A stretch of 24,449 nucleotides of DNA from Candidatus Methylomirabilis sp. (GTDB taxonomy: Bacteria > Methylomirabilota > Methylomirabilia > Methylomirabilales > Methylomirabilaceae), in contig JBGQJI010000029.1 of assembly GCA_041498975.1 (NCBI GenBank), forward strand, positions 1 to 24,449, given 5' to 3'. Within the stretch, counting starts at the first letter, position 1. Each line of letters opens with the position of its first letter. A program made the translations under genes and the position numbers. The notes below the pieces were generated by a model. That model was not told the DNA's origin, searched no databases, and worked only from the letters and a program-made list of their open reading frames with translations. Of this stretch, positions 4,248 to 24,449 are shown piece by piece.

Positions 4248-4852
4248 GAGCCCTTTCTAACCTCGTCCGAATCAGCCTGCTCTACATCCAGGTTGCCCTG
4301 AGCCAGCATCGTAACGGCTTTCTACGTTCTCTCTTCTTCGACAAACTCGACCTGAACCGTCTGAAGGTGGAAGCAGATTCTTTCCACCGCGACGAGGTGG
4401 GGGCGAAGCACAGAAACTGCGGGCGGATCATTGTTCAATGGTGCTTTTCTCGACTGGCATGATTCTTGTTTGTGACCGGTAATGGGAGTTCCCGAATGAT
4501 TCCTCATCTGAACACCTTGGTTTGCTGTAGGCCTAGGGCGTGCCTCCCGTGATCCGCCAGGGGCGCATTTTCGACCGCGAGCGCACACCCTGCCTAAATG
4601 CCTCGATACGAAGTCATCTCCACATCCGCAACCCCCCATTATCAAGCACATTCCTCGCACGTCTCCAAGAAGCTGCGGCGCTGAGTCGGGCAGGCTGACA
4701 CGCAAGCCCAAGGACCCAGGCGGGGCCCGTGGCCGCAACAGGAGATCCTTGCGACATATCTCTTGCCGATAGGGCGGTGTCCTCGCCAGACAACTGACGA
4801 CGACTACGCTCTCACGCCGAAGGCGGGGTAGGACGTCTGCACTCTTCCAACC

Positions 4853-6326: not shown

Positions 6327-7580
6327 TCAACTTCCCGAGGAGAGGCCCTCAGCGGGCAGAAAATCCCTCCGTTCACTCTTGCCTTGCGTCCTGCTCCTCC
6401 AGGACCACCATATCCGATTTGCGATATATTTCAATGGCCGATACACGTAGTAGAAGGGCAACAGCCACGCGTGGCGGACGTGGTAGGCCCAACGCAGATG
6501 GCTTGCCGAAGGGAAAAGCATCCAGGCTACGACACGAACTCGAGGGCCCCAACCATTGGTTCTCCTGATCAGCCCCTTTAACTCTCCACGCGTGACCGCC
6601 AGCGCCGCAAATAAAGCGACCTCTCGACCGATGGCGTCCGTGCGTGAAGCAGCCACCCTCAAGCGTCCCAAAACGGCCGCAGGAATCTGAGCATTTAGAC
6701 CCTCCGCTAGATAACCAACCGTCACGGATAGCGGCAGTGCCAGATGGCTGCGGAGGGCACATTCCAGGAAAACGTCCCAGTCCAGATTCGGATGACAAGC
6801 CACGATATGCCAGGCATCGCACACCCACTGCAGCGACTGGTTGCTGCCGGAACAAGATGGCAGGCCACAGACGTGGAGGAGATTGTCGGCCGGTGAGAGG
6901 ACGCGCGTTGAAACGCCCGCAACGACCTGAGTCTGACTGCGTGCCCGCATGTCTGCTAATGGCGGACTGTAGTACGGTATTCGAAACAGACGGGCGTGCA
7001 GCTCAAGGGGAAGGCCGGACTCATGCGTGAGCTTCACGTGATCCTGGCCAGCACCAGACTCTTTCCCTGAGAGCGTAAATCCTAGTGGAGACAACATGCT
7101 GGCAGCACGTAAAAGATCACCCTCTTCTAGGAGAATATCGATATCATGGCTGTGACGAAGCGCCGGATCACCGTACACACTTTCCCCAAGCGCAGCGCCC
7201 TTGACCAGGATCTGCGAAACCCCTGCGCTAGTCAGCGTGGTGAGAACCTCCCGGAGGATGCGGGAATAGATCTTGGTACGCAACTCTTCTTTCAAAGAGG
7301 CAGTTCGTAGATACGTTAACAGCGAGTCGTCAACCACCGCACCGGTTCGTCGCAGTGCGACAAGCAGGAGGGGCGCCACCGTCTTGACCCCCTGTCTATC
7401 ATCTCCCAACAAGGCCCTAGGATCACCGGCTCTCTCCCGCCACACACCCCATGCTTTGCGTCCCGAGTCGCCGGAGTAGAGACAAGCACGCAGCAGCCAT
7501 GTCTGCTCCTCCGTTGGCAGGATAGCCGACAGGGTATCCGAAAGCGGAGGTTGCTCAAAAGCCGCTTCCCTCAGGCGCAT
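6327..7580 (-). CDS. Nucleotidyltransferase family protein (NTP_transf_5-like)
   Basis: LVKGAAL...YGDPALRHSHDIDILL, LELHARLF, WVCDA, LDWD. ATG 7580 with GAGGG upstream is preferred over the 7613 start in the ORF track. Confidence 0.85.
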   Translation of the reverse strand: MRLREAAFEQPPLSDTLSAILPTEEQTWLLRACLYSGDSGRKAWGVWRERAGDPRALLGDDRQGVKTVAPLLLVALRRTGAVVDDSLLTYLRTASLKEELRTKIYSRILREVLTTLTSAGVSQILVKGAALGESVYGDPALRHSHDIDILLEEGDLLRAASMLSPLGFTLSGKESGAGQDHVKLTHESGLPLELHARLFRIPYYSPPLADMRARSQTQVVAGVSTRVLSPADNLLHVCGLPSCSGSNQSLQWVCDAWHIVACHPNLDWDVFLECALRSHLALPLSVTVGYLAEGLNAQIPAAVLGRLRVAASRTDAIGREVALFAALAVTRGELKGLIRRTNGWGPRVRVVAWMLFPSASHLRWAYHVRHAWLLPFYYVYRPLKYIANRIWWSWRSRTQGKSERRDFLPAEGLSSGS

Positions 7581-7801
7581 TGAAATACGCCCTCGAACGT
7601 GTGATCGACACAAGGCCCCATCATTACCGCGATACCCTTACTCACACCAGTGCAGCGCGAGGAACTGACCCAACCAAGCGCCGCCAGCATATCAGTTGCC
7701 TGCCCCAGGCCACAGGGCCGAGCGCGAAAGCCGGCCGTGATCTCCTCGGTTTCATCGGTTTCTCCCGATCCCATTCTCACGGTTACCATCCCCCAGTCAC
7801 A

Positions 7802-8485
7802 TTATGGCGTACGGCAACGTTGACGCCTGACCGAGTCTCTCAAAACGTTCAGAAGGTTGTCGTGGAAGTCTCGGGAACTATACGTGGTGTTGGCGTCGTG
7901 CATGCGTTTCTGAACCAGTACCTGGGGAATAACGCCCATTGGCACGTCCATATCCTTGGCCTTGGCGTACCAGTCAACGTCTTCCGCTGTAGTGTACTCC
8001 GGGTTGAATCTTCCCACGAGGCCGAACACTGATCTGCGCGCCACCAGTGTTTCCATCATGCGGCCGACATGGTCGCCTTCCAGTAACTCCTCCTTGAACC
8101 TGGATGGGACGTGCACCCCTGGTTCGAGAAAGAATTTTACCCTTGTAACAGTGTATTGGATTTCCGGATGACGAGTCATATAGCCGATCTGGAGGGCCAA
8201 TTTGTTGGGCATCCACAGATCGTCGTGCGAGAGAAATGCAAAGAACTCCCCATCAGCAGCGTCAATACCGACGTTCCAAGCGTCACCAACACCCCGATTG
8301 GTTTGTCGGATATATCGAACGACTCCATACGATCTAGCGATCTCGGCAGTCCTGTCAACCGACTGACCATCTACGACGATGAGCTCGATTGGCTTATAGT
8401 TCTGCTGAAGAACGCTGTCAATTGCCGAGGCCAAGAAGCGCTCACCGTTCTTTACCGCGATGATTGCGCTCACCAAAGGCCCCAT
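7802..8485 (-). CDS. Glycosyltransferase family 2 (GT-A), the most divergent paralog
   Basis: LVSAIIAVKNGERFL, VVDGQSVD, AFLSHDDLW, EDVDW. ATG 8485 has GAGGAGG upstream. Confidence 0.9.
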   Translation of the reverse strand: MGPLVSAIIAVKNGERFLASAIDSVLQQNYKPIELIVVDGQSVDRTAEIARSYGVVRYIRQTNRGVGDAWNVGIDAADGEFFAFLSHDDLWMPNKLALQIGYMTRHPEIQYTVTRVKFFLEPGVHVPSRFKEELLEGDHVGRMMETLVARRSVFGLVGRFNPEYTTAEDVDWYAKAKDMDVPMGVIPQVLVQKRMHDANTTYSSRDFHDNLLNVLRDSVRRQRCRTP

Positions 8486-8793
8486 CAATTCCCTGATCCC
8501 TCCTCGTGCACTCCGCACTCCTATCGGCGACCTCTCAGCAATGAATGGCAAGGTGCGGCCGCACGTTCTGTCTCCGACCTTGGCAAACATGTGATCTTGC
8601 CCATACCCTCCAGATCATCATTCATGCTGACCCGAGGATCGCTCGTACGAGGCGGTACCGCAGGATCGTCTTGGCACTCAGTGTCTCTCCTCTGTGCCCC
8701 AGCAGACAAGCTCCAACATGTGAAACCTTCGCGACGCGCGGCAGAAACAGGCTCCGGGGAATGCAGACTCCCCGATGTGCCAGCTCAAGCCGC

Positions 8794-9540
8794 TCAGTCC
8801 GTCTGCTGGCAGTGTGTAGCGTGGAACGGAACGGGTCCGTGGGCCGGACCATCCTGACGGCGCCGCCGATCGAGAGACGCCTTGACGATCCCCAAGAGTG
8901 CATCTTGACTGGCGGAGGCCTCGACACGGCTCATGTTGGTCCGGTGCAAGCGGCGGCATACGAGGACATCCGGCAATAGCTCCATGACCGCCCCCTGCTC
9001 CCCCGCACGCAAAAACCACTCGGTATCATCTCCATGCTGCAGCCTGACGTTGAACTGACCTACCACGTCGAAGAGTCTCCGCCGGGCCAGGAGCGTTTGA
9101 GTGATATAGCCGGGCAACGCCCGCGAAAGGCGATGATCCCGCAACCGCTTCGCTTCTTCGCGCAGTTCCGGAACCCAGAAGTTCTGCACGTGCGTGACAC
9201 AGAGGTCCAGTTCGGGGCGGGCCTCAAACCGGGCCATCTGGCGAGCCAACTTCTCCGGATGCCACAGGTCGTCCGAGTCGAGAAAGGCGACAAACTCACC
9301 TCGTGCGGCGCTCACCCCCAGGTTACGAGTCGATGGCAACCCTGTGTGAGGCTGCCACAGGTGCCGAATTTGCTCGCCGTAGCCGGCCACCAGTTCAGGC
9401 GTGCCATCGGTCGAGCCATCGTCGGCGACGATGATCTCCAGCGGCCGATAGGTCTGCGCCCGGATGCTGTCCAGCGCCTCCCGCAGGTAGCGCTCGCCGT
9501 TGAAGACGGGCACGATACAACTGATCAGGGGGAGCGTCAT
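8794..9540 (-). CDS. Glycosyltransferase family 2 (GT-A)
   Basis: ISCIVPVFNGERYL, ADDGSTD, FLDSDDLW, GDDTEWF. Confidence 0.93.
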   Translation of the reverse strand: MTLPLISCIVPVFNGERYLREALDSIRAQTYRPLEIIVADDGSTDGTPELVAGYGEQIRHLWQPHTGLPSTRNLGVSAARGEFVAFLDSDDLWHPEKLARQMARFEARPELDLCVTHVQNFWVPELREEAKRLRDHRLSRALPGYITQTLLARRRLFDVVGQFNVRLQHGDDTEWFLRAGEQGAVMELLPDVLVCRRLHRTNMSRVEASASQDALLGIVKASLDRRRRQDGPAHGPVPFHATHCQQTD

Positions 9541-9552
9541 GACACAGCCGGC

Positions 9553-10299
9553 CTAGCGCTTTTGCTGCCAGCCTGAACCCGAGAACTCAGTGGACCAGGG
9601 GACCGCCTCATTCCGAAGTCGCCGACGATCGAGTGACCCTTTCACGATGTGCAAGTACTCATCGCGGCTCGCAGATGCCTCGCGCCGGCTGAGGTTGCAG
9701 TGGTGCATACGATGATATGTCAACACACCGGATAATAATTCCATGACCGCGCCATGCTCCGCGGCCCTTAAGAACCACTCCGTGGCGTCCCCATGCCGAA
9801 ATGCCGTATTGAACCGGCCCACCCGATCGAAGAGGGTGCGCCGCGCCAGGAGCGTGCCTGTGTAATAACCGGGCATCGCCTGTGCGCGCGGATGATCACG
9901 ATATTGCAGTTCTTCTTGGATCAGTTCGGGAATCCAGAAGTTCCGAACGTGCGCCACGCACAGGTCGAGTTCGGGGCGCGCCTGAAACCGGGACATCTGG
10001 CGGGCCAACTTCTCCGGATGCCACAGGTCGTCTTGGTCGAGAAAAGCCACGAATGGACCCTGCGCCGCGCTTAGGCCGAGGTTTCGCGTCGCTGCCGGCC
10101 CGGAGGTGGACTGCCGCAAGAGGCGAACCTCCTCGCTATAGGAAACCACCACTGCCCGCGAACCATCGGTCGAGCCATCGTCGGCGACGATGATCTCCAG
10201 CGGCTGGTAGGTCTGCGCTCGGATGCTGTCCAGCGCCTCCCGCAGGTAGCGCTCCCCGTTGAAGACGGGCACGATGCAACTGATCAGAGGAAGCGTCAT
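9553..10299 (-). CDS. Glycosyltransferase family 2 (GT-A)
   Basis: ISCIVPVFNGERYL, ADDGSTD, FLDQDDLW, GDATEWF. Confidence 0.93.
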   Translation of the reverse strand: MTLPLISCIVPVFNGERYLREALDSIRAQTYQPLEIIVADDGSTDGSRAVVVSYSEEVRLLRQSTSGPAATRNLGLSAAQGPFVAFLDQDDLWHPEKLARQMSRFQARPELDLCVAHVRNFWIPELIQEELQYRDHPRAQAMPGYYTGTLLARRTLFDRVGRFNTAFRHGDATEWFLRAAEHGAVMELLSGVLTYHRMHHCNLSRREASASRDEYLHIVKGSLDRRRLRNEAVPWSTEFSGSGWQQKR

Positions 10300-10309
10300 G
10301 ACAGGTGGC

Positions 10310-11071
10310 CTAGCGCTTTTGCTGCCAGCCCGAACCCGGGAACTGATAGGGGGCCGCTACCGACCCATCCCGACGTGGGCGGCGCCGATCAAGTGATGCC
10401 TTTAGCACCTGCAATAGGACGTCTCGTTCCCTTGAGTTAACGCGAGTCAAACCCCAGCTTATGTTGGTCTGGTGTAAACGGCGATACACGAGAACCTCAG
10501 GCAGGATCTCCATGACCGCCCCGTGCTCGGCCGCATGCAAGAACCAGTCTGTATCCTCTCCAGCAGGCAATCCGGTGTTAAACGCGCCCACCATATCGAA
10601 GAGCGTGCGCCGTGTCAGGAGCGCCTGGCAAACATACCCGGGTATCGCCGGCGCGAGGCGGGGATGGCCTCGATACCCCGAGGCCTCCCCCGCGAGCTCC
10701 GCGACCCAGAAGTTTTGCACGTGCGTCACACAGAGGTCGAGGTCGAGCCGCGCCTGAAAGCGGGCCATCTGGCGGGCCAACTTCTCCGGATGCCACAGGT
10801 CGTCCGCGTCGAGGAAGGCCACGAAGTCGCCTTGAGCCGCGCGTAGCCCCAGATTCCGCGCGGCCGCCGGCCCCGCGTTTGGCTGTGTCAGGTAGCGCAC
10901 GTGCTCCCCGAAGCCAGCCACCACGGCCGCCGTCCCATCGGTCGAGCCATCGTCGGCGACGATGATCTCCAGCCGCCGATAGGTCTGCGCCCGGATGCTG
11001 TCCAGCGCCTCCCGCAGGTAGCGCTCGCCGTTGAAGACGGGCACGATACAGCTAATCAAGGGAGGTTTCAT
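10310..11071 (-). CDS. Glycosyltransferase family 2 (GT-A)
   Basis: True start MKPPLISC at ATG 11071, which overlaps the kinase stop as ATGA. Motifs ADDGSTD, FLDADDLW, GEDTDWF. Confidence 0.93.
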   Translation of the reverse strand: MKPPLISCIVPVFNGERYLREALDSIRAQTYRRLEIIVADDGSTDGTAAVVAGFGEHVRYLTQPNAGPAAARNLGLRAAQGDFVAFLDADDLWHPEKLARQMARFQARLDLDLCVTHVQNFWVAELAGEASGYRGHPRLAPAIPGYVCQALLTRRTLFDMVGAFNTGLPAGEDTDWFLHAAEHGAVMEILPEVLVYRRLHQTNISWGLTRVNSRERDVLLQVLKASLDRRRPRRDGSVAAPYQFPGSGWQQKR

Positions 11072-12183
11072 GACCCGTTTGCCATCGCCAGAAGCTCCTC
11101 TACACGCGCCGGAATCTCCGACAGATCGTGGCCCAACTCCAGCCAGTAACTGGAAACCCGCTCGACGAGCTGAACCAGTCTCCCGAAGCCACAATCCTCC
11201 GGGCTGAGTGCCATGAAAAGGGAGCTCGGCCCCACTGCAAGGAGGGCTTCGCCTTTCGAAGCGGGGCGAATCCGTGACTGAGGGGCATCCACGATACGTG
11301 GAAGCGCCAGCGCCTTGATCGGCACGGAACATTCGAGCCGCTTCGGAAAGACCTGCGAAAGCAGAATGAGAGACTTTTCTTCGTAGGGAAATCTGCCCTT
11401 AATGGCATGAGGAATCAAGCCTGGAAACCGCGCCAGGTCATCCGTCTCCAAGAACACTGAATTATAGAGACTGTGGCCCACGAAGGAACCCTCCGGCAGA
11501 CGTTGCAGGCCGACAAAGTCTTCACTGAGATAGTTAAACCCAGCACACAGGCATGCCAAGGTTGAGGTGGACTTTCCAGACCCACTCCTGCCGGCAAAGA
11601 GGACCCCTTGCTGATTTCGGGAAACCAGGCCGGCGTGGATCACCTGTACATTGCGGTCGTTGTGCCACATCACCAACGGCCTGGTTAAGGGTTTTCCGCG
11701 TTCATAGATGAAGACATCATCGCTCCATGCTATGGAGCCGATGATGTGGTCAGCTTTCCGATCCAAGCAGGTGAAGGTATTCGGCAACCGCTGCCCCAAA
11801 TACCGGCCGTCGGGCGATACTGCCGTGACATCTGCCCATCCGGGGTCACGACGCGCCGGACCGAGACGAAGGCGGATGTTCGTTTCATTCTCATCCCAGA
11901 GGTCGATGGTGAGCTGAGGGTCGGGCGAGACGGATCCGTTCATTCGCAAATGGGAGAACGGGCGAACAATCTGCTCCGCCAGGTCCCGCCCCACGATACG
12001 TATCCGCACGATCTGACCCGCGAACGTGTAGTGCGACTCGAGGAGGCGATCTGGATTTGTCGCAACCGCTTGTCCAAAAGCAGTCCGCATCCTGCTGAAC
12101 ATGGCCTCGCCATCCAGGATGGCCCAGCCGCGGGCCACGCCCGCATATCGCACCGGAACCGTCTGCGCAGACGCGTCCTCCAT
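11068..12183 (-). CDS. HPr kinase/phosphorylase-like P-loop kinase
   Basis: IHAGLV, Walker A GRSGSGKST, acidic motif YLSEDFV and C-terminal YWLELG, typical of HprK-related kinases. RBS AGAAGGA upstream. Confidence 0.85.
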   Translation of the reverse strand: MEDASAQTVPVRYAGVARGWAILDGEAMFSRMRTAFGQAVATNPDRLLESHYTFAGQIVRIRIVGRDLAEQIVRPFSHLRMNGSVSPDPQLTIDLWDENETNIRLRLGPARRDPGWADVTAVSPDGRYLGQRLPNTFTCLDRKADHIIGSIAWSDDVFIYERGKPLTRPLVMWHNDRNVQVIHAGLVSRNQQGVLFAGRSGSGKSTSTLACLCAGFNYLSEDFVGLQRLPEGSFVGHSLYNSVFLETDDLARFPGLIPHAIKGRFPYEEKSLILLSQVFPKRLECSVPIKALALPRIVDAPQSRIRPASKGEALLAVGPSSLFMALSPEDCGFGRLVQLVERVSSYWLELGHDLSEIPARVEELLAMANGS

Positions 12184-12203
12184 GTCCTTCTTCTCCGATC
12201 GGT

Positions 12204-12656
12204 TTACCCTGGGGTTCCCTCGGTTGGCTCCTTCCAGGGGATCTCCTGGAGCGTGGGCATGGGCGGATCGAGGGCGAGCAGGTCTCCCATGTCACGATAG
12301 ATATTGAGCATGGGCGATTCGTAAGGTTTTCTATCTTCCGACTGAGTGTTCTCGTTCTGCCGAGGTGGTGGCGCGAGGTGTGACAGAACAACCAGGTTTT
12401 CTTGCATGAGTTCCCCCGCCAGCCGTTCGACGTCGGCTTGTGCCTGTTTGTCCGAGACGTCATAGCGCGAGACGATCGCCCCGATGATCTCCTGCAAACT
12501 GTGCCCCCCTTCGATCATCTCCCAGAGCAGACCCCCGACCTTGTCCATACTATAGTACATCCCGTTGGAGAGGTTGATGATGATCGCCTCGCCATCGAGG
12601 ACCTTGGCGGCGACCTCCGCCTCATTGGGGCGCAGGCGATTCTGCAGCGTCAGCAT
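12204..12656 (-). CDS. PqqD-family/RiPP recognition element (RRE) protein with a C-terminal leader-like extension
   Basis: AKVLDGEAIIINLSNGMYYSMDKVGGLLWEMI...YDVSDKQAQADVERLAGELMQENLV is a PqqD-type pattern. ATG 12656 has GGAGG about 6 nt upstream. A tail of roughly 55 aa follows the domain. Confidence 0.9.
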   Translation of the reverse strand: MLTLQNRLRPNEAEVAAKVLDGEAIIINLSNGMYYSMDKVGGLLWEMIEGGHSLQEIIGAIVSRYDVSDKQAQADVERLAGELMQENLVVLSHLAPPPRQNENTQSEDRKPYESPMLNIYRDMGDLLALDPPMPTLQEIPWKEPTEGTPG

Positions 12657-13770
12657 GAGCAGCCTCCTGGACCAGTTTCCGATAGAGCGCGACATAGGCA
12701 TCCACGCAACGTTCCAGGCTGAATAGCTTCTGTGCCCGGTGACGAGCGGTCTGACCCATCAGTATCGCTGATTCCGGCTGTTCGAGGAGCATGGCGATCG
12801 CCTCGGCGAGGGCCCCGCTGTCCTCCTTCTCGACGAGCAATCCGGTCTGTTGATGGACCACGACTTCCGGAAGCCCCCCGACATCTGTCGCCACGATAGG
12901 GCGGGCCATCAGGGCTGCTTCCAATGCCACTAGGCCGAAAGGCTCCTCCCATCGAGACGGCATGACGACCACTGTGGCAGTGTTGATCAGAGCCGGCACC
13001 TTGTCCGGGGCGACCCAGCCAGCGAAGTGTACAAGCCCGTTGAGGCCCAGCTCGGCCGCCTGCTGTTCCAACGCGGGCCGCGCCGCCCCATCCCCGGCAA
13101 TGACCAGGCGTGCATGAGGAAAGCGGCCACGCAGCGAGGCAAACGCCGTCAAGGCCAGATCAAAACCTTTATCATTGATAAGTCGGCCCAAGCACAGCAG
13201 CCGTGGCGTATCGCTGGGAAGGGGCTCAGGATTGAGGAGCGGCACGTCCAGGCCATTGTGAATGACGGAGGAGCAAGGGATGATCTCCGGCACTAGATGG
13301 CGAGCTTCGGCGAGCAACGCTGCCGAGCAAGCGGTGACCCAATCAGCACGGCGCAGAGTCTGTCCCACGAGGGTGTCATGGCCGAGATCCTTATTCGGCC
13401 CGGGTCCGTGCAATGTGACCAACAACGGCGCTCGATGAACATCTGCCGTCTGGAAATAGAAAAAGGCACTGGCACCGACGATGTGCATATGGACCACATC
13501 CGGTGCGAAGGCGCGCTTCAGCTTGGCGACCCGCTGCCGGACTTCCATCAGTTGGTCGATATTGGCATCGGCCAACGCCATCCAAAAAGGGAAACGGTAT
13601 ACGGGAACACCTTTGTACTGTGTTTCGCTCGGGAGATCTAGCGCAGCCTGCGGTGTCACCACGATGACCGCACAGTTACGCTCCCGCAAGGCCAGCGCTA
13701 CCTGCGCGAGCAGGACCTCGGCGCCCCCTATGATTGGCCAAAATGACTCCGACCATAGCAGGATCCGCAT
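12622..13770 (-). CDS. Glycosyltransferase family 4 (GT-B)
   Basis: MRILLWSESFWPIIGGAE (ATG 13770, GGAGGAGG upstream), LGRLINDKG, EPFGLVALEA, GGLPEVV. Confidence 0.93.
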   Translation of the reverse strand: MRILLWSESFWPIIGGAEVLLAQVALALRERNCAVIVVTPQAALDLPSETQYKGVPVYRFPFWMALADANIDQLMEVRQRVAKLKRAFAPDVVHMHIVGASAFFYFQTADVHRAPLLVTLHGPGPNKDLGHDTLVGQTLRRADWVTACSAALLAEARHLVPEIIPCSSVIHNGLDVPLLNPEPLPSDTPRLLCLGRLINDKGFDLALTAFASLRGRFPHARLVIAGDGAARPALEQQAAELGLNGLVHFAGWVAPDKVPALINTATVVVMPSRWEEPFGLVALEAALMARPIVATDVGGLPEVVVHQQTGLLVEKEDSGALAEAIAMLLEQPESAILMGQTARHRAQKLFSLERCVDAYVALYRKLVQEAAHADAAESPAPQ

Positions 13771-13974
13771 GACTAAGGCGACACCCTCCTCCTGGATGTG
13801 ATCAGCCTTGTAATGACCAGAGCAGTTTCTGTGCTCCCGCGCTCTCCAGCTCCAAGAATCTCGCCAAGCGGGTCTGTTGTTGCATTCATTTGCATGTTGC
13901 CGCATGCAGCCACACGACTGCCACACGGCACATCAACGAGTCTCTGCTCCCCCACTTCGGCCAGAGGCCGGGAA

Positions 13975-14691
13975 CTATTGCGCCGCTGAAGCTGACACAT
14001 CGCGACGCCGACGACGATCAAGGGACGCCTTCACGATTTGTAAGTATTGATCCCGACTGGCTGCCCCCAAGTGGCGCGTGCGGTTACCATGGTGTAAACG
14101 ACGATACAGAAGGACATCGGGCAACAATTCCATGACCGCCCCGTGTTCCACCGCGCGCAGGAACCACTCGGTGCTGTCTCCATGTTGCAATGCCTCGTCA
14201 AATTGCCCCACCGTGTCAACGAGAGCTCGCCGCGTAAGAAGCGCACAGGTGGTATACCCCGGCACCGCGTTCGTGAGGCGGGGATGACCCCTGTACCGTG
14301 CCGCCTCTTCCGTCAGCTCCGGGACCCAGAAGTTCTGCACGTGTGTGACGCAGAGGTCGAGGTCTGGGCGCGCCTCAAACCGGGCCATCTGGCGGGCCAA
14401 CTTCTCCGGATGCCACAGGTCGTCCGCATCGAGGAAGGCCACAAACTCGCCCTGGGCCGCCCCCAACCCCAGGTTGCGCGCCGCCGCCGGCCCCGCATTC
14501 GGCTGGGACAGATAGCACACCTGCTCCCCGAAGCTCGCCACGAGGGCCTGTGTCCCATCGGTCGAGCCGTCGTCGGCCACGATGATCTCCAGCGGCCGGT
14601 AGGTTTGCGCCCTGATGCTCTCCAGCGCCTCCCGCACGAAGCGTTCGCCGTTGAAGACGGGGACGATGCAGCTAATCAATGCGGGAGCCAT
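13975..14691 (-). CDS. Glycosyltransferase family 2 (GT-A)
   Basis: ISCIVPVFNGERFV, ADDGSTD, FLDADDLW, GDSTEWF. Closest to 17012..17761. Confidence 0.93.
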   Translation of the reverse strand: MAPALISCIVPVFNGERFVREALESIRAQTYRPLEIIVADDGSTDGTQALVASFGEQVCYLSQPNAGPAAARNLGLGAAQGEFVAFLDADDLWHPEKLARQMARFEARPDLDLCVTHVQNFWVPELTEEAARYRGHPRLTNAVPGYTTCALLTRRALVDTVGQFDEALQHGDSTEWFLRAVEHGAVMELLPDVLLYRRLHHGNRTRHLGAASRDQYLQIVKASLDRRRRRDVSASAAQ

Positions 14692-14721
14692 TTGTAGCCC
14701 TTGTTGAAAGCCAAGAACGTT

Positions 14722-15603
14722 TCACCCGAGCCTTACTGTCGCTTCCGCTCTGTAGCGTCGAGGGGTGATCTCGATTCTCCTGCCGGGCGGCACCGGGCCC
14801 GTCGGGGGCAGCGGACAGTTCAGGCACAGGTGATACTTCTCCCGCCGCCCCGCGATGAGGTCCTCGACAACCTGGACATGGCGTCCCGAGAGCCACAGGT
14901 CCTCCAGTGAATCTTGGTAGACGTTACCCAGTTTGAAGGCCCCGTATGTGTCCTCACAGCAGTTACACACCTCGCCGTCATGCTGGATGATCATGCGTAT
15001 GAGGGGGCGATGGCAGGGTGCATTGGCGTACGTGAAGTCCGGGATGGCCACGCGCGAGTCGGAAGGCACCAGGGCCTTGGGTACCCCGTTGCTGTGGCCG
15101 GACCGCACCCCCGATAGGCCAATGGGGTTGAAGGCGAGATTGGCGCCGGCGAGCCTGGCTTGCCAGTACCGCTTGGTCTCCTCTAGCTCCTCCTGCATCT
15201 CATAGTCGTACAGACCGACGACGATGAGCTTGTAAACGCTCTTGACCTCCTCGCACAGCACATCGTCGCGCCTGAGCCTGTCACCGTTGGTGTGAAGGTA
15301 AGGCTCCATGCCCCGCTTGTTTGCCTCCTTGGCGAGCATGACGTTGCGATCGTCGAGCAACGGCTCGGAATAGTGGTGAAACGCTACTCGCCCCATGAAT
15401 CCCATGCGTTGGGCTTGGTCGAGGAGGTCGAGGATCTTCTCCGTGGGCATCCGATTGAAGACGGCCTTCCCCGTTTCGTCGAGGTACTTTCCGGAGCGGT
15501 CATAGGTGCGGGGGCAAAACCAGCACGAGCGATTGCAGTTCGACTGCGACTCTATCAAGAGGCGCTCGAACAAGGGAATTCTGCTCTTAGACCGACCAGC
15601 CAT
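14722..15603 (-). CDS. Radical SAM enzyme with a C-terminal SPASM/twitch-like domain
   Basis: CNRSCWFC (CxxxCxxC), YSEPLLD, LHTNG, then PCHRP...DGEVCNCCED...LGNV...LEDLW...CLNC. ATG 15603 with GGAG upstream is preferred over TTG 15654. Confidence 0.9.
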   Translation of the reverse strand: MAGRSKSRIPLFERLLIESQSNCNRSCWFCPRTYDRSGKYLDETGKAVFNRMPTEKILDLLDQAQRMGFMGRVAFHHYSEPLLDDRNVMLAKEANKRGMEPYLHTNGDRLRRDDVLCEEVKSVYKLIVVGLYDYEMQEELEETKRYWQARLAGANLAFNPIGLSGVRSGHSNGVPKALVPSDSRVAIPDFTYANAPCHRPLIRMIIQHDGEVCNCCEDTYGAFKLGNVYQDSLEDLWLSGRHVQVVEDLIAGRREKYHLCLNCPLPPTGPVPPGRRIEITPRRYRAEATVRLG

Positions 15604-15656
15604 AGAGCTCTCCGATTCACCCGCCAGCGTGGAGGCTCCTGGGACCTCGGCCAACC

Positions 15657-15728
15657 CGCCTCGCCGGCGAGGACCTCGCTGGCAGCCTTCGTTTCATCGC
15701 GGCGGAGGTGATCCCGAAGCACCAACAT
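15657..15728 (-). pseudogene. N-terminal relic of a second PqqD/RRE gene
   Basis: MLVLRDHLRRDETKAASEVLAGEA aligns with MLTLQNRLRPNEAEVAAKVLDGEA of 12204..12656, and has the same 35-nt overlap with the upstream GT4 3' end. Confidence 0.8.
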
Positions 15729-16838
15729 AAGCGGCCCCATGGATCAGTCTCCGGTAGAGCGCGTCATAGGAATCGACGTGACGTTCCAAACTGAAGAGCC
15801 TTTGCCCCCGGACACGGCCAGCCCGCCCCATCTTCGTTGCTACTTCAGGATTATCGAGGAGCAATGCGATCGCGTCGGCGAGAGCCTCGCTGTCTTCCTG
15901 TTCGACGAGCAATCCGGTCTGCTGGTGCACGACGACTTCGGAAGTCCCCCGACCCGCGTCGCCACCACCGGGCGAGCCATGACGGCCGCCTGTAATGCCA
16001 CATTGGGGAGCCCCTCCCACCGAGAGGGCATGATGACGACTGTGGCAGTGTTCATCAGCTCCGGCACCTTGTCCGGGGCGACCCACCCAATGAAATCGAC
16101 AGAGTGGGTGAGTCTTAGCCCAGCGGCCTGCCGCTCCAACGGCGGTCGTGCTGGGCGGTCCCCACCGATGACCAGTCGTGCACGAGGGAAACGGTCACGT
16201 AGTGAGGCAAAGGCGCTCAAGGCGAGATCAAACCCTTTCTTGGGAACAATCCGACCCAAGCACAGCAGCCGTGGAGGATTACTCGGCAATGGCGCGGGAA
16301 AGAGACCGGGCTCGTCCAGGCCATTATGAATGACGCATGAACGGGGAGTGATCTCCGGCGCCAGTTGGCGGGCATCGGCCAGCAGTGCCTCCGAGCAGGT
16401 GGTAACCCAATCAGCGGTTCGTAGGGCTTGTCCCAGTAACGTGTCAGACCCTACAGCGTGGATCGGTAAGGCACTGCGGACCGTAAACAGAAACGGTGCT
16501 GGATACGCCGCGGCCGTGCGGAGGTGAAAATAGACAGCGGGGCCCGTATAGTTCATGTGAATCAGGTCGGGTTTGAAATGCTGCTTGAGCCTGACGGCCT
16601 GTTTCTGGATCTCCATCAACTGGCTCGGGTCACGCGTCGCCAGCGCCTTTCGAAAAGGAAAGCGGTGGATGGGAATCCCCCTGTGCTGGCCTGTATCTGG
16701 AAGATCGAGATGATCGTGCGAGGTCACGACGATGACCTCATAGCCTCGCTCCCTCAAGGCCGGGACGAGCTTGGCGGCGAGAACCTCGACGCCCCCAATG
16801 TAAGGCCAGAACAGCTCCGTCCAGTATAAGACTCGCAT
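15694..16838 (-). pseudogene. Glycosyltransferase family 4 with a 1-bp deletion frameshift near 15939 (pseudogene or sequencing error)
   Basis: The frame reads VGGLP|KSS. The continuation EVVVHQQTGLLVEQEDSEALADAI lies in ORF 15694..16086. The paralog has CCG GAA GTC where this copy has CCG AAGTC. Confidence 0.85.
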
Positions 16839-17011
16839 TGCCTGGCCGCTTCCCTCTTAGTCGATTCGATCTATTGTGCAGTGTTGCATCCGAGTCGTTC
16901 CCGCGGCCGCAATTGTTCAGTCACTAGAGCACCAGCAAGCAGGACCTTCGCCCCGTGCAGAGGAATGTGCTCCATCGCACTCGAACGATTAGTTCGCCCA
17001 ACTGCACCAGC

Positions 17012-17761
17012 CTAGGCTGTCCAGCGCCGGTCCGAGGCCGGGAACTCATAGGGTGGAGCGACCACCGCATCAAGACGCCGACGGCGATTGAGCGACGCCT
17101 TCACGATCTGCAGGTATTCATCGCGACTCGCAGAGCCTTGGCGTCTGCTGAGGTTGCCGTGGTGCATCCGATGATATGTCAGAACCTCGGGCAATAGTTC
17201 CATGACCACTCCATGCTCAGCCGCCCGCAAGAACCACTCGGTATCGTCTCCATGCTGCAATGCCTCGTCGAGTTTCCCCACCGTGTCAAAGAGAGCGCGC
17301 CGCGTAAGCAGCGTACAAGTGGTATACCCCGGCACCGCGTTCGTGAAGCGGGGATGGTCCCGGTACCGGGCCGCCTCTTCGATCAGCTCCGGGACCCAGA
17401 AGTTCTGCACGTGCGTGACGCAGAGGTCGAGGTCGGGCCGCGCCTGAAACCGGGCCATCTGGCGGGCCAACTTCTCCGGATGCCACAGGTCGTCCGCATC
17501 GAGGAAGGCCACGAACGCCCCCTGGGCCGCGCGCAGGCCCAGGTTCCGCGCCGCGGCCGGCCCCGCATTGGGCTGGGACAGATGGTGAACTGGTTGATCG
17601 TAGCTGGCCACGATGGCCGCCGTCCCATCGGTCGAGCCGTCGTCGGCAACGATGATCTCCAGCGGCCGGTAGGTCTGCGCCCAAATGCTGTCCAGCGCCT
17701 CCCGCACGAAGCGCTCGCCGTTGAAGACGGGCACGATGCAACTGATCAGGGGGGGTGTCAT
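17012..17761 (-). CDS. Glycosyltransferase family 2 (GT-A)
   Basis: True start MTPPLISC at ATG 17761. Motifs ADDGSTD, FLDADDLW, GDDTEWF. Confidence 0.93.
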   Translation of the reverse strand: MTPPLISCIVPVFNGERFVREALDSIWAQTYRPLEIIVADDGSTDGTAAIVASYDQPVHHLSQPNAGPAAARNLGLRAAQGAFVAFLDADDLWHPEKLARQMARFQARPDLDLCVTHVQNFWVPELIEEAARYRDHPRFTNAVPGYTTCTLLTRRALFDTVGKLDEALQHGDDTEWFLRAAEHGVVMELLPEVLTYHRMHHGNLSRRQGSASRDEYLQIVKASLNRRRRLDAVVAPPYEFPASDRRWTA

Positions 17762-17920
17762 GACCGGGTGACCTCCGCCAAGAGCTCGTCCACGCCCGCC
17801 GGAATCTCCCCCAGGTCGCGGCCCAACTCCAGGCAGCAACTGCGGATGCGCTAGACAAGCTGGGCGAGTTGCTGAAAGCCGCAGGGGCCGGGAACGGGGA
17901 CCATCAACAGATTGGAGCTA
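17758..17920 (-). pseudogene. C-terminal relic of a second HprK-like kinase
   Basis: Translates as ...CGFQQLAQLV*RIRSCCLELGRDLGEIPAGVDELLAEVTRS*, against CGFGRLVQLVERVSSYWLELGHDLSEIPARVEELLAMANGS* in the intact kinase. In-frame TAG at 17851-17853, and the same ATGA overlap with a GT2. Confidence 0.85.
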
Positions 17921-18238
17921 GCGACACATGCAACGATGTCATCCCTTCGGTACGCGACCCCCTACAGCCTCACCGACGTAGCCTATCTGGTCCGAATGAA
18001 CGTATCACAGATGCCAGGTGGCTGCAACCATGCCGTTGCTTCCTCCTGGACCCCTGATCCGGCAGACTGCCCACGGTCGTCGCGTTTGCCCTGGCGGCCC
18101 ATCGTCAGTCAACCCAGGCGCCTCAGCGTGCCGCGCCGTCTCCTTCCCTCCAAGTGCCCCCCTCGGGTCTTTGAGGAGCCAGAGGGGTCGGGAGGATGCT
18201 TGATCTCCACAGATAATCATCAATCGCCTTCCGTATAT

Positions 18239-21337: not shown

Positions 21338-22408
21338 ATGTTCTCTAGTCTGAACATCCCCCGAGAGGGAGCCGCGCTCCTTACGCTGGCACGTGCTGCC
21401 CTTTCAGCGGGCCCCAGTCCTACCGAGGACTTCCCGTCCTCGCTCGATTGGACCTTCCTTCTACGGTTGGCGCGCCACCATCGACTCGAGCCACTCCTGT
21501 CCTATGGCCTCCGCCGGTCCCACTTCGGTGGCATCCCGGCCAAGGTGCGCGAAGAGTGGGACGACCGCCGTCTCCATGCGGTTGCCCGCGCCCTCTACCA
21601 TCAGAAGGCTCTGGTGGCGATCGCGGCGGCCTTCGATGGCCGGCGGGTCCCGTTTATCCTCCTGAAGGGTGAGGCTCTCTCGAAGGCGCTGTACCCTCAG
21701 GACGGGCTACGTCCCTATGGCGACATCGACCTCCTCATACGGCCGGAGGCCTACGAGTCGGCAAAGGCGGCTCTGGCAGAGTTAGGATTTCAGCTCCGGC
21801 ATGCAACCAAGGAGTCTGATCAGCGACGGATTTTCGGAGAGGTCGAGTTCGATACGGAGGGGCCCCGAGCCATAACGGTGGACCTCCATTGGGATACGCT
21901 GATGACTTCATGGGAGCCACGCTCTCTTTTCACTGAGTACGAGACATGGGACACCCCTGATCATATTCGCCTCGGGGATTGCGACATACCGGTCCTCAAG
22001 GGGGAGATTCTTCTCCTCTTCCTCAGTGTCCATTTCGCGTTCCACCATATGTTCGACGGGCTGCTGCTCCTTTGCGATCTCTTCCTGGTTCTCAGGCGCG
22101 ACGCAGAACGGATCGACTGGGATCGCCTCATTGCCCTCACCAACCGATGTCGGTGCCAACGTGCGCTCTTCTACTGCCTCCACTTCGTGCACGCGCTCAT
22201 GGATGCTCCCGTGCGTCCGGACATCCTCGACCGGTTGCGACCGCCCGGATCGATCCGGGCCCTCATGCCAACCGGTCGATTGCTCTTTCGGGACACCGTG
22301 GTACCGAAGATGCTCGAACGATACGTTAAATTTCTCTTGATCGATGCGCGTGGAGGACGATGGCGGGCAGTGAAGGCCTGGATCGAGGTCACGTTGAAAG
22401 GTGTATGA
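21338..22408 (+). CDS. Nucleotidyltransferase family protein (NTP_transf_5-like)
   Basis: LDW..LLRLARHHRL, ILLKGEAL...YPQDGLRPYGDIDLLI, VDLHW, LCDL, IDWD. Confidence 0.88.
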   Translation: MFSSLNIPREGAALLTLARAALSAGPSPTEDFPSSLDWTFLLRLARHHRLEPLLSYGLRRSHFGGIPAKVREEWDDRRLHAVARALYHQKALVAIAAAFDGRRVPFILLKGEALSKALYPQDGLRPYGDIDLLIRPEAYESAKAALAELGFQLRHATKESDQRRIFGEVEFDTEGPRAITVDLHWDTLMTSWEPRSLFTEYETWDTPDHIRLGDCDIPVLKGEILLLFLSVHFAFHHMFDGLLLLCDLFLVLRRDAERIDWDRLIALTNRCRCQRALFYCLHFVHALMDAPVRPDILDRLRPPGSIRALMPTGRLLFRDTVVPKMLERYVKFLLIDARGGRWRAVKAWIEVTLKGV

Positions 22409-22465: not shown

Positions 22466-23755
22466 TCACCACTGGCTCGACGCAGGCAGGGTGAGCTCGT
22501 CTCTTTCATATCGCTGGGGGGCCGGGGCTTCTGGCTGCGAGAACAGGTGCCGGAGATACCACGTCAGAATTCCCACCCGTATCAGCGCAGACAGGATCCT
22601 TGCGTAGACGGCTCCATAGACCCCCACGAGAGGGATAAGCACGCAATTGGCCAGGACGCTCGTGCCTGTACCGATGGCCAAGGACCGGAGCACTTTCTTC
22701 TCCTGATACAAAGCCTGCAGAGTCACAGAAAGGAAGATGTTGAGGAAGCTGAGAGGGAACAAGAGCGTCAGTGGACGAAGGAGCGGAGTCACTGTGCCCG
22801 AGACGGAGCCGTACAACACCGCTGTCAGAGGCGAAGCGAGAAGGAAAGCCACCCCCATCGCAAGTAAGCCCAGGCCCAGGAGAAACACGGCCCTGCGAAG
22901 GATGGCACGCCGGTTCGCTGGACTCTGGCCGTGGGCAGCCAACTGGGGGAAGAACACCTGACCAACCACCGTGGGAATAAAAGAGGCAGCGAACACGATC
23001 CTGAGGCCCATGTGGTAACGGCCAACGGTTTCGTAGTCGGTCAGGAAGCCAAGGAGCAGCGTATCGATCTTCTCTCCAAGCACGGCAAGAAGGAAGGTGA
23101 GAAGGAACGGAACTCCCTCTCTTATAAAGATGGTATCCCACGACACCTGCAGCGGGCACAGCCAGAAGCGGGTTATGAAAACGCCCGCCCCTAACAGGCA
23201 GATGGAGCGCAGAAGATTTGCCCCCAAAAGCACATTGAGCGAGGGCATCCACCACATGCCCAGGAGAAAGACAGACATGAAGAAAACCTCCACTGCCCCG
23301 CCAATCCAGACGTTGTAGACGACCTTTCCCATCGCAGTCAAGAAGGTGCCGAAGGAAAAGTGGATATTTTCGAGCAGTGCAGTGAGGGCCACAACCAGGA
23401 CCACTCGCCAAATTCCCCCAGTAAACGCGAACGCGGCAGCAGACACACAAAGGAGGTACACAGGACTACCCAACAGTCGGAAGCCCAGCAGCGGAGCCAG
23501 GTGGGATGAGGCATGAGCCGGGTCGGCAGCCACCCGCCGCATCATCACCGAATTAAGTTGAAAGCTGGCCAGGACAAGGAAGGATTCGGCAAAGGAGACG
23601 GCAAAGAAATAGACACCGATCTCTTCGGCCAGTAGGCGGCGGGAGAGAACCATGAGTAGAACAAGGCCGCCCAGCTTATAAAACGTCTGGAGGGCAAGCA
23701 GAAGGAAGGTGTCGCGTTGGAGAGGGTTACGCCGCAGGAAACTGAACGGTCCCAT
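22466..23755 (-). CDS. Wzx-like/MOP-superfamily oligosaccharide flippase
   Basis: Many hydrophobic segments, LSRRL...IGVY, KIDTLLLG...VGRY, FFPQLA, LANCVLIPLVGVYGA. Likely start ATG 23755 (the ORF track extends to 23797). Confidence 0.85.
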   Translation of the reverse strand: MGPFSFLRRNPLQRDTFLLLALQTFYKLGGLVLLMVLSRRLLAEEIGVYFFAVSFAESFLVLASFQLNSVMMRRVAADPAHASSHLAPLLGFRLLGSPVYLLCVSAAAFAFTGGIWRVVLVVALTALLENIHFSFGTFLTAMGKVVYNVWIGGAVEVFFMSVFLLGMWWMPSLNVLLGANLLRSICLLGAGVFITRFWLCPLQVSWDTIFIREGVPFLLTFLLAVLGEKIDTLLLGFLTDYETVGRYHMGLRIVFAASFIPTVVGQVFFPQLAAHGQSPANRRAILRRAVFLLGLGLLAMGVAFLLASPLTAVLYGSVSGTVTPLLRPLTLLFPLSFLNIFLSVTLQALYQEKKVLRSLAIGTGTSVLANCVLIPLVGVYGAVYARILSALIRVGILTWYLRHLFSQPEAPAPQRYERDELTLPASSQW

Positions 23756-24044
23756 CCTAGGCCCGGATCCTGTCGCACATCTGGCGGCTGAACTCAAGGA
23801 GAGTCCGGAGAGCCCTTCTTGTGCTTCGGCCCGAGACTGACCGATGGGCAGCTACGCGGCGGACCAGACACAGGCCATTACACCGTAGCAAGCCAGCCAC
23901 CGCCTCCTCGTCCTTTGCCCCCCATAGATTCCACTCCTTCAGACATTCCAACCCTTGACAGGCTCTTGCGCTCCGATCCTGTGCTTCGGCAGAACCGTGA
24001 GCGCACGCTGGGAGGCCCGCGTGGCACGCTCCGAGACTTCCCGA

Positions 24045-24094
24045 GGCGGAGAGAACGTCGTGACCATACAGAAGCGCAGCGGTCGCTCCATCAT
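24045..24094 (-). pseudogene. Truncated 5' stub of a GT4 gene
   Basis: MMERPLRFCMVTTFSPP is identical to the start of 2245..3480 except Y>S. Unrelated sequence follows, with a stop near 23940. Confidence 0.8.
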
Positions 24095-24424
24095 CGCGCG
24101 CTGAGGACTCCGAGGGACACGGCCCGGCGGAGCCGCCGGGGGATGCTGCGCGCCCTGAGGTACCAGGGGAACAGACGCGTCGGCAGCAGCCCGAAGCGCC
24201 GCTCGGTCCGGAGGTAGTAGGCGTCCACGCGCTCGAGGGCGTAGGGGTCGCTCCGTACGGTGACCAGGCCGAGCCGGTCGGAGCAGGCGCAGGCGAAGTG
24301 CTCGCGCACGAGGGCGCGGGAGCGCGCGTCGGAGCGCCCGTAGGGGTAGGCGAAGGTCGTGACCGGGGTGCCCATGGCCTCCTGGAGGATCGCCTGCGCG
24401 TCACAGACCTCCGCCCGGAGGCGG
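24045..24424. repeat. Direct repeat copy 2 of 3431..3810
   Basis: Near-identical sequence with about 10 mismatches in 380 nt. Similarity degrades after about 24430. Confidence 0.95.
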
Positions 24425-24432
24425 GGGGGCAT
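24091..24432 (-). pseudogene. C-terminal half of a duplicate polysaccharide deacetylase (truncated, or cut by the window edge)
   Basis: Near-identical to the last ~110 aa of 3477..4247 (FAYPYG...LGVLSAR). The TFDD and HxxxH motifs are absent within the window. Confidence 0.7.
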
Positions 24433-24449
24433 GGGGGTGCAGAGTCGCT

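Follow-up and report, generated by a model that had tools for sequence, protein, structure and literature searches.

A candidate self-leadered RRE cassette with an HprK-like kinase, nucleotidyltransferases, and amplified glycosyltransferases in a surface-polysaccharide locus of Candidatus Methylomirabilis

The window analyzed here is an entire 24,449-base contig (JBGQJI010000029.1) of a Candidatus Methylomirabilis sp. genome of 2.68 Mb in 241 contigs, with a completeness of 84.9%. Between positions 6327 and 17940, where Pfam and NCBIfam scans placed all genes on the minus strand, a PqqD-like RRE (recognition element for peptides that are made by ribosomes and modified posttranslationally, RiPPs) is encoded together with an HprK-like kinase, a PF14907 nucleotidyltransferase, a radical SAM-SPASM enzyme, and many glycosyltransferases (GTs). 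Here, we show that this RRE protein bears a conserved leader-like tail at its C terminus, the key feature of the locus and one absent from its first-pass annotation. We propose, at a rough probability of 0.5, that the region represents an expanded version of a widespread, autonomous, self-leadered RRE cassette within a surface-polysaccharide locus, in which the RRE-tail protein replaces a separate precursor and is itself the carrier or scaffold for decoration with phosphate and sugar. The cassette probably yields a peptide or protein to which phosphate and sugars are attached.

The RRE protein consists of a PqqD/RRE domain (approximately residues 1 to 92), a variable linker, and the tail, KPYESPMLNIYRDMGDLLALDPPMPTLQEIPWK, at residues 110 to 142. 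Its gene start was placed at 12656 because almost all of its 1,094 homologs (E ≤ 0.001) have a length of about 150 amino acids. The tail consensus reads P-Y-x-x-P-x-L-N-I-Y-R-D-M-x-D-L-L-A-L-D-P-P-M-P-x-L-x-x-I-P-W-K, followed by 0 to 10 variable residues, and the near-invariant core, PYxxPxLxxYxDMxxLLALDPPMP, opens with the YxxPxL motif of lasso-type leaders. In an alignment of 56 sequences, P115, L117, D130, and P131 were invariant, and Y112, Y120, D122, M123, L126-L129, P132, P134, and W141 were at least 90% conserved. Of 267 family proteins, 266 had Asp at tail position 19 (D130, codon 12267-12269), and in 261 the next residue was Pro.

A profile of the tail, searched against 1.84 billion representative proteins, matched 2,655 of them with E ≤ 0.001. 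The tail occupied the extreme C terminus in the best 150 of these 2,655, and about 100 of the 150 were proteins of about 140 to 200 amino acids in which it began at about residue 105 to 120. A six-frame profile search of the window's own genome (84.9% complete) found the tail only on this RRE, the next match having an E value of 0.17, and in the related loci compared below each tail match formed the C terminus of a PqqD frame, bar one frameshifted case. Candidate free forms of the tail were rejected. The apparent free tail in locus L056 is a frameshifted RRE fusion, and the short tail-profile proteins (38 to 110 amino acids) resemble 5'-cut fragments and were for this reason not counted as free forms: among the 23 examined, 18 had fewer than 80 amino acids, and most began with V, linker, or RRE-helix sequence and ended with the tail. 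Rare architectures were also seen, namely, one GT4-RRE-tail fusion (P0389, 511 amino acids, n = 1) and the tandem RRE-tail proteins P0157 and P0363; in the tandem proteins, the first unit retains only the YxxPxL part.

The relationship of this RRE to the B1 proteins of lasso peptide pathways was apparent in both sequence and predicted structure. Its best sequence matches among solved structures were the lasso PqqD chaperone 9x90_B (2.6e-9) and TbiB1, with TfuB1 also among the best, and the top structural match of the model was TbiB1 with leader (5v1v_A, E 3e-5, TMt 0.90). In the AlphaFold2 model, residues 111 to 120 reached a predicted local distance difference test (pLDDT) score of 94, compared to 60 to 68 in the linker before them, residues 131 to 150 were disordered, and short strands were formed by residues 110 to 111 and 118 to 120. 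This pLDDT pattern is as expected for a YxxPxL motif docked in cis on its own RRE, and such docking is what the model predicts.

The kinase scored below the cut-offs of Hpr_kinase_C (PF07475; 21.9 bits versus 33.3), TIGR00679 (22.1 versus 240), HprK_rel_A (TIGR04352; 40.3 versus 200), and HprK_rel_B (TIGR04355; 30.2 versus 200). Its P-loop, GRSGSGKST at residues 198 to 206, is intact, G201, G203, K204, and D222 are invariant, and an intact ED pair takes the place of HprK's catalytic DD in the alignment. Homologs numbered 468, and the 120 listed were 52 to 92% identical over nearly the full length. PF27840 (named ScmC in Atlas) is annotated in 95 of these 120; the window kinase itself had no PF27840 match in the Pfam scan. 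Named sources among the listed homologs were metagenome-assembled genomes of Binatia or Deltaproteobacteria, and breadth beyond the phylum is read from such source names and from Atlas labels. The AlphaFold2 model (pLDDT 89.6) adopts a two-domain fold like that of phosphoenolpyruvate carboxykinase (PEPCK); the top Foldseek matches were PEPCK (E 1.5e-10), not HprK chains. HprK chains of the PDB matched the kinase only at E values of 0.25 to 0.9.

Prediction of a complex between the kinase and the RRE-tail protein gave a score of 0.77 (0.77, 0.75, and 0.79 in the individual runs), whereas the best of three controls scored 0.32. Among solved complexes, 116 of 157 attained that mark, compared with 2 of 215 mismatched pairs; both counts are rough because own alignments were used. 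Contacts agreed between runs to at least 40%, with a pLDDT of 75 to 76 for the partner, and the confident interface joined kinase residues 199 to 200 (P-loop) and 309 to 341 to the RRE beta-sheet (residues 16 to 36) and to tail residues 120, 122, and 123. It falls on near-invariant columns of both proteins (A313, L314, L315, P319, and L339 of the kinase; D21, E23, I27, L29, G32, Y34, and S36 of the RRE). The RRE beta-sheet and tail residues 120 to 123 are predicted to pack against the C-terminal helices and the P-loop of the kinase.

We propose that the leader-like segment of the RRE-tail protein occupies its own RRE and that the resulting RRE:tail complex recruits the kinase. The RRE-tail protein would stand in for the separate precursor of the lasso and linear polyphosphorylated peptide (LPP) pathways. 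Serving as the carrier, or at least as an indispensable scaffold, it would be the site at which the kinase, together with the PF14907, GT4, and GT2 enzymes, assembles a decoration containing phosphate and sugar in the cytoplasm. The length or composition of the glycan would be set by the GT copy number (a single copy of each GT in the complete genome described below, eight copies here). The extension of such a glycan by the many GTs on a phosphorylated carrier, as proposed in the first-pass annotation, remains an inference, given a tail with no conserved Ser or Thr and GTs that are mostly recent duplicates.

Several points weigh against a carrier role. Ser or Thr is nowhere conserved in the tail, so that a phospho-acceptor in cis is not evident. 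Positions 1 and 9 alternate between Y and F (or H), and a Ser or Thr beyond position 20, present in 190 of 208 full-length proteins, is by our estimate about what composition predicts for 19 disordered residues. The invariance of the tail, judged from the alignments, looks more like that of a binding interface. Both the docking of the motif in cis and the contact with the kinase are model predictions, and the function of PF14907 is known solely from pseudomycoidin genetics. Moreover, the transferase of the LPP system, LppN, was inactive in the heterologous host (PMC13381572). Finally, the related loci compared below all belong to a single phylum and are kin, which makes their counts overstate independence.

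The missing Ser/Thr is the main weakness of the carrier reading, which we hold at about 0.5, and makes an adaptor role for the RRE-tail protein its chief rival. The built-in leader would then sit permanently on the RRE, or the tail would be a pseudosubstrate that imitates the phosphorylated state, and would activate or assemble the kinase, the PF14907 enzymes, and the GTs for a leaderless substrate in trans, with the RRE-tail protein itself left unmodified. Candidates for this substrate are a different protein, a peptide whose gene lies elsewhere, and a sugar or glycan from the polysaccharide pathway encoded around the cassette; in the window, genes for Wzx, deacetylases, and ATP-grasp proteins share the locus with the cassette. 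A near-invariant tail devoid of a conserved hydroxyl residue would suit such an adaptor, as would the almost universal Asp at position 19, which is what a product or phospho-mimic would be. There is also precedent, as engineered leader-in-cis fusions activate RiPP enzymes. The adaptor role accords poorly, however, with a stand-alone six-gene form of the cassette that has no adjoining polysaccharide gene or other candidate substrate gene, and with related cassettes of the genus that carry a peptide, fused or free. We regard it as a serious possibility that is nevertheless somewhat unlikely.

A bolder variant of the carrier reading, which we consider doubtful, makes the RRE-tail protein a self-priming carrier, a bacterial counterpart of glycogenin assembled from RiPP parts. 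The docked leader would feed the next segment to the kinase, the invariant Asp of the tail would be either the attachment site (as an acyl-phosphate or ester, extended by the PF14907 and GT2/GT4 enzymes) or a built-in phospho-mimic to which these enzymes add, and the strain-variable GT copy number (2 in the complete genome described below, 8 here) would determine the length of glycans made on a protein primer with no lipid carrier.

Gene neighborhoods in related genomes tie the GT genes to the RRE and the kinase. Searching the phylum with the kinase gave some match in 51 of 251 genomes and a full-length one (E < 1e-30) in 13, including the window's own, and 20 distinct loci with a full-length kinase were compared with the window proteins. 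On the same strand, a GT2 gene lay within 6 kb of the kinase gene in all 20, and an RRE-tail gene lay within 1.5 kb in 17; the RRE gene was two genes away in one further locus and frameshifted in another. GT4, upstream of the RRE in most cases, and PF14907 were each found near the kinase in 11 loci, and a radical SAM-SPASM gene, following the kinase, was found in 3. The conserved unit comprises GT4, RRE-tail, kinase, GT2, and PF14907.

The autonomy of this unit is best seen in G053, a congeneric genome that is complete in a single contig, where GT4-RRE-kinase-GT2-PF14907 and a divergent PF14907 gene form a six-gene island. One flank carries pyrroline-5-carboxylate reductase and GHMP kinase genes, and the other carries glpX-type fructose-bisphosphatase, His-tRNA synthetase, and Asp-tRNA synthetase genes. 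A flippase, exporter, peptidase, or other sugar gene was not found at the island locus, nor was a precursor or peptidase gene within 7 kb on each side. The position of the island among housekeeping genes argues that the cassette does not depend on a polysaccharide locus. An ortholog (511 bits) of the second PF14907 protein of the window, encoded at 21338-22408, lies divergently beside the G053 cassette, and the window gene is probably a cassette member as well; both window PF14907 proteins retain the DxD motif.

These neighborhoods bear on another explanation, namely, that the locus is an ordinary one for exopolysaccharide or O-antigen and that the RRE, the kinase, and the nucleotidyltransferase are passengers unrelated in function to the GTs. 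We judge this to be very improbable, given the constant linkage of GT2 to the kinase, the G053 cassette devoid of polysaccharide genes, the known GT4-RRE fusion protein, and the tight gene junctions of the window, which overlap or are 10 to 20 nt apart. The GT4 and RRE genes share 35 nt, the RRE and kinase genes are separated by 20 nt, and an ATGA is common to the stop of the kinase gene and the start of the GT2 gene at 10310-11071. Nor did the Pfam scan reveal an initiating phosphoglycosyl transferase or a polymerase among the window open reading frames (ORFs), in a locus that is truncated by the contig ends. What favors an ordinary polysaccharide locus is that genes for a Wzx-like flippase, for two deacetylases and methyltransferases, and for additional GT4s lie on the contig and that LPP and paeninodin clusters likewise occur in capsule loci (PMC13381572).

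A further alternative is a conventional RiPP pathway whose free precursor and leader peptidase are encoded beyond the contig or in the 15% of the genome that is not assembled, the tail being only regulatory or autoinhibitory. The window is a whole contig with unseen flanks in a genome that is 84.9% complete, and another cassette of the genus has a free 47-amino-acid ORF with YxxPxL beside B1 and B2 genes. Still, we hold this explanation to be improbable, as the genome yielded no second copy of the tail and no match to the B2 peptidase family PF13471, and the complete G053 cassette has no precursor or peptidase gene nearby. Scanning the six frames of the window for [YWF]xxPx[LVIFA] gave, besides the tail, only chance-like matches, one of them in the N terminus of a PF14907 protein. 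S24/S26-type peptidases were absent from the 26 window ORFs and from the ORFs of the G053 cassette locus, and no ABC transporter domain was detected among the window ORFs.

The first-pass annotation had described a same-strand GT4, RRE, kinase, and GT2 run with overlapping genes, a nucleotidyltransferase downstream, and a flippase nearby, and had seen no lasso cyclase, transglutaminase-like peptidase, or pqqBCE gene. The Pfam and NCBIfam scans (26 and 25 window ORFs, respectively) and the junctions bore out the arrangement, and Pfam detected no Asn-synthetase-like, transglutaminase-like, or pqqB/C gene among the 26 ORFs. The absence of lasso B2 and C genes held beyond the window, within the 84.9% of the genome available: PF13471 had 0 matches, and the only strong PF00733 homolog, encoded on contig C165 (1874-3760, plus strand), carries a glutamine-amidotransferase domain. 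It was rejected as a lasso cyclase since it scored 640 bits with the XrtA/PEP-CTERM amidotransferase model (itself below the cut-off of that model, 817) versus 254 bits with the lasso cyclase model (cut-off 525). The gene lies between GT4 and epimerase genes, and its setting suggests a further exopolysaccharide locus.

Two further cassettes of the genus deserve mention. In the window's own genome, contig C55 (34-3860, plus strand) encodes a C25 peptidase resembling PorU, followed by an HprK_rel_A-like kinase (58.7 bits), a PqqD protein, and a PF14907 protein, with Wza- and Wzc-like export genes near the cassette on the opposite strand. In this PqqD protein the RRE is followed by SRRELVK and a hydrophobic segment, resembling a twin-arginine translocation signal, and by a Cys-rich end of 28 residues. 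A second locus in G053 (8401-13076) encodes a 105-amino-acid PqqD protein, a 170-amino-acid Transglut_core3 (B2-like) protein, the 47-amino-acid ORF mentioned above, which contains PYTKPTL (YxxPxL), an HprK-like kinase, and a GT2, and further contains a divergent ABC-2 transporter gene, followed by a GDP-mannose dehydratase gene. An Asn-synthase-like cyclase was not found in 20 kb around it. The 47-amino-acid ORF was considered as a relative of the tail and rejected; it shares YxxPxL, yet the tail profile did not match it at E ≤ 1. As judged from their gene content, the fused (C55) and free-peptide (G053) cassettes help the peptide reading.

The eight GT genes counted in the first-pass annotation do exist as ORFs within 6327-17920 (six GT2 and two GT4), but they are mostly paralogs, and one GT4 is frameshifted. 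The GT2 genes at 8794, 9553, 10310, 13975, and 17012 share 66 to 84% mutual identity, and the two GT4 proteins (12622 and 15840) are 60.5% identical; with five GT2s and two GT4s mutually paralogous, the genes do not represent eight independent specificities. This copy of the cassette has grown by duplication of its own GT2 and GT4 genes, and most of its GTs are recent duplicates. The DNA at 10491-11172 is 79% identical to that at 17181-17862 over 685 nt, and the similarity extends beyond the GT2 start into kinase sequence. Directly upstream of the GT2 gene at 17012-17839, a relic at 17770-17940 encodes the last approximately 57 residues of a kinase with one in-frame TAG (39.4 bits, 51% identity), mirroring the kinase/GT2 junction at 11068-11071. 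In the GT4 gene at 15840, tblastn located a frameshift near 15936-15948, with the final approximately 70 residues in another frame at 15739-15948. Contigs from two other sediment runs of different studies (X1 and X3) cover this site without indels, so that the frameshift is not peculiar to this assembly, with the reservation that one of the runs may be the source sample.

The order kinase relic-GT2-GT4-radical SAM matches that of the related loci of the radical SAM type, kinase-(GT)-radical SAM. From this correspondence, the region appears to consist of one intact cassette, amplified GT2 genes, and the remains of a second, radical SAM-type cassette (kinase relic, GT2, frameshifted GT4, and radical SAM gene). 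Contigs of runs X3 and X10 connect 12837 to 15949, omitting 3,111 bases and with 40 other letters between them. Variation in the population or misassembly driven by the paralogs may account for this join, in which both GT4 genes are recombined and the GT2 gene at 13975 and the radical SAM gene are missing.

The features of the window are listed in Table 1. Outside 6327-17920, it further encodes two ATP-grasp proteins, two deacetylases, and two more GT4s, and in the sugar locus, a gene for a CmoA-like carboxy-SAM synthase (214 bits, above the cut-off) overlaps a methyltransferase gene at 490-2039 on the minus strand. The flippase is the sole window protein with membrane-spanning segments; the cassette proteins are devoid of transmembrane-like segments. 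The ORFs 4322-4738 (138 amino acids) and 23757-24449 (230 amino acids) were rejected as genes, having no family match and a composition resembling that of a wrong frame; the longest ORFs of the approximately 600-base stretches 4248-4852 and 23798-24449 are rich in Arg, Pro, Ser, and Ala and match no family. A promoter and terminator scan of the window found 8 terminator-like sites versus 9.5 expected, with none in the gaps between minus-strand genes. A single RNA-library contig match of 218 nt (13631-13848, depth 2) is no demonstration of transcription.

Table 1. Genes and other features of the window
Feature	Position	Strand	Details
PF14907 nucleotidyltransferase (NTP_transf_5)	6327-7613	-	Pfam, 121.8 bits; motif D157-x-D159
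Divergent GT2	7802-8590	-	Pfam; 35-38% identity to GT2 paralog group
GT2 paralog	8794-9540	-	66-73% identity to other cassette GT2 genes
GT2 paralog	9553-10299	-	66-73% identity to other cassette GT2 genes
Cassette GT2	10310-11071	-	Glycos_transf_2, 124 bits
HprK/ScmC-like P-loop kinase, 371 amino acids	11068-12183	-	Hpr_kinase_C, HprK_rel_A below cut-off
PqqD/RRE protein, 150 amino acids	12656-12204 (ORF 12204-12701)	-	PF05402, 58.1 bits
Leader-like tail of the RRE protein, residues 110-142	12231-12329	-	Followed by 8 variable residues
Cassette GT4	12622-13770 (ORF 12622-13926)	-	Glycos_transf_1, 140 bits
GT2 paralog	13975-14691	-	84% identity to GT2 at 17012-17839
Radical SAM-SPASM enzyme	14722-15654	-	Pfam; CNRSCWFC at residues 40-47
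GT4 paralog, frameshifted	15739-16838 (ORF 15840-16838)	-	tblastn, in two frames
GT2 paralog	17012-17839	-	Pfam
Kinase 3' relic	17770-17940	-	Matches kinase residues 312-368
Second PF14907 nucleotidyltransferase	21338-22408	+	190.7 bits; outside 6327-17920
Wzx-like flippase	22466-23797		Polysacc_synt, 42.5 bits versus cut-off 28.2

RiPP-type recognition domains are assumed to need a separate precursor, and hence mining tools leave thousands of orphan PqqD proteins of more than 110 amino acids unexplained. In the portions of one survey covered here, 21% of the PF05402-only proteins exceed the size of a discrete RRE and are left unexplained (PMC12710340). If our proposal is true, a natural self-leadered RRE working with a kinase, a nucleotidyltransferase, and GTs would explain a large orphan class and show a route by which a peptide-tailoring module can become independent of its precursor. 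Phosphoglycans linked to proteins or peptides could also come to light in uncultured bacteria of soil and sediment. Four or five soluble proteins would suffice for a direct test of the question.

Among characterized systems, the LPP clusters of Bacillota (LppA/K/B/S/D/N) come closest, combining an RRE, an HprK-like kinase, and an NTP transferase (Popov et al., Nat Commun 2026, PMC13381572). According to that article, these clusters are often found in capsule loci and are termed restricted to Bacillota, and the kinase polyphosphorylates core Ser3 of LppA, the precursor motif being YxxPxVLxHQxIxFETxxS. The first-pass annotation had placed phosphopeptide tailoring without lasso formation here and considered it undescribed; the RRE, HprK-like kinase, and PF14907 set without lasso machinery is present, whereas the claim to novelty does not survive the publication of the LPP system. 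Shared with LPP are a discrete lasso-type RRE, an HprK-like kinase, and an uncharacterized NTP transferase without a cyclase, the polysaccharide-locus setting of the window, and a YxxP-type recognition motif. In a register that is our own reading of a short motif, the tail agrees with the LPP motif at positions 1 (Y), 4 (P), 6 (V/L), 9 (H/Y), and 12 (I/M). Its Asp-Pro lies 18 residues past the motif Tyr, the spacing of the phosphorylated Ser3 in the LPP motif.

The cassette also differs from LPP. The window ORFs include no archaeal-type signal peptidase I (the LppS type) and no MsbA-like ABC exporter, the sole membrane protein being Wzx-like. A free precursor is missing, and the leader-like motif is instead fused to the RRE, with Asp at tail position 19, where the LPP precursor has the phosphorylated Ser. 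The cassette has GT4 and GT2 in its core and, moreover, occurs outside Bacillota. The pathways of paeninodin (PadeK) and pseudomycoidin (PsmK and PsmN) likewise combine a B1-type RRE fold, an HprK-like kinase, and a nucleotidyltransferase. The account given of them in the first-pass annotation, with the kinase phosphorylating the precursor and the transferase linked to glycosylation, agrees with the covered parts of the source, in which the PF14907-type PsmN is required for the addition of one or two hexoses to the phosphate (PMC6993621). These pathways have a cyclase, a B2 peptidase, and a precursor whose C-terminal residue is Ser, none of which was found for the cassette. With lasso B1 proteins the cassette shares the fold and sequence of its RRE, closest to TbiB1, TfuB1, and 9x90_B, and the predicted binding of YxxPxL.

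HprK-related kinases A/B with PqqD (TIGR04352/TIGR04355) and the SynChlorMet proteins ScmC/ScmD (PF27840 and TIGR04248) are bioinformatic families only. Like them, the cassette couples a P-loop protein resembling HprK to a PqqD-like protein, in some cases accompanied by a radical SAM-SPASM enzyme; unlike SynChlorMet, its RRE scored 26.1 bits with ScmD versus a cut-off of 100, and its radical SAM enzyme had no ScmE/F match at E ≤ 0.001. The kinase resembles HprK/P in its P-loop (GxSGxGKS), the acidic pair after it, and the PEPCK-like fold but differs in its scores below cut-off, its N-terminal domain, and a gene context without HPr or phosphotransferase system genes. A description of a tail-bearing RRE or of this cassette was not found in the literature, including term look-ups in the covered parts of PMC7470986 and PMC12710340, with the supplements of PMC13381572, which may list related clusters, lying outside the search. 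To these known systems, the window adds the amplification of GTs within the cluster, a decayed second cassette, and an orthologous island that stands alone in a complete genome.

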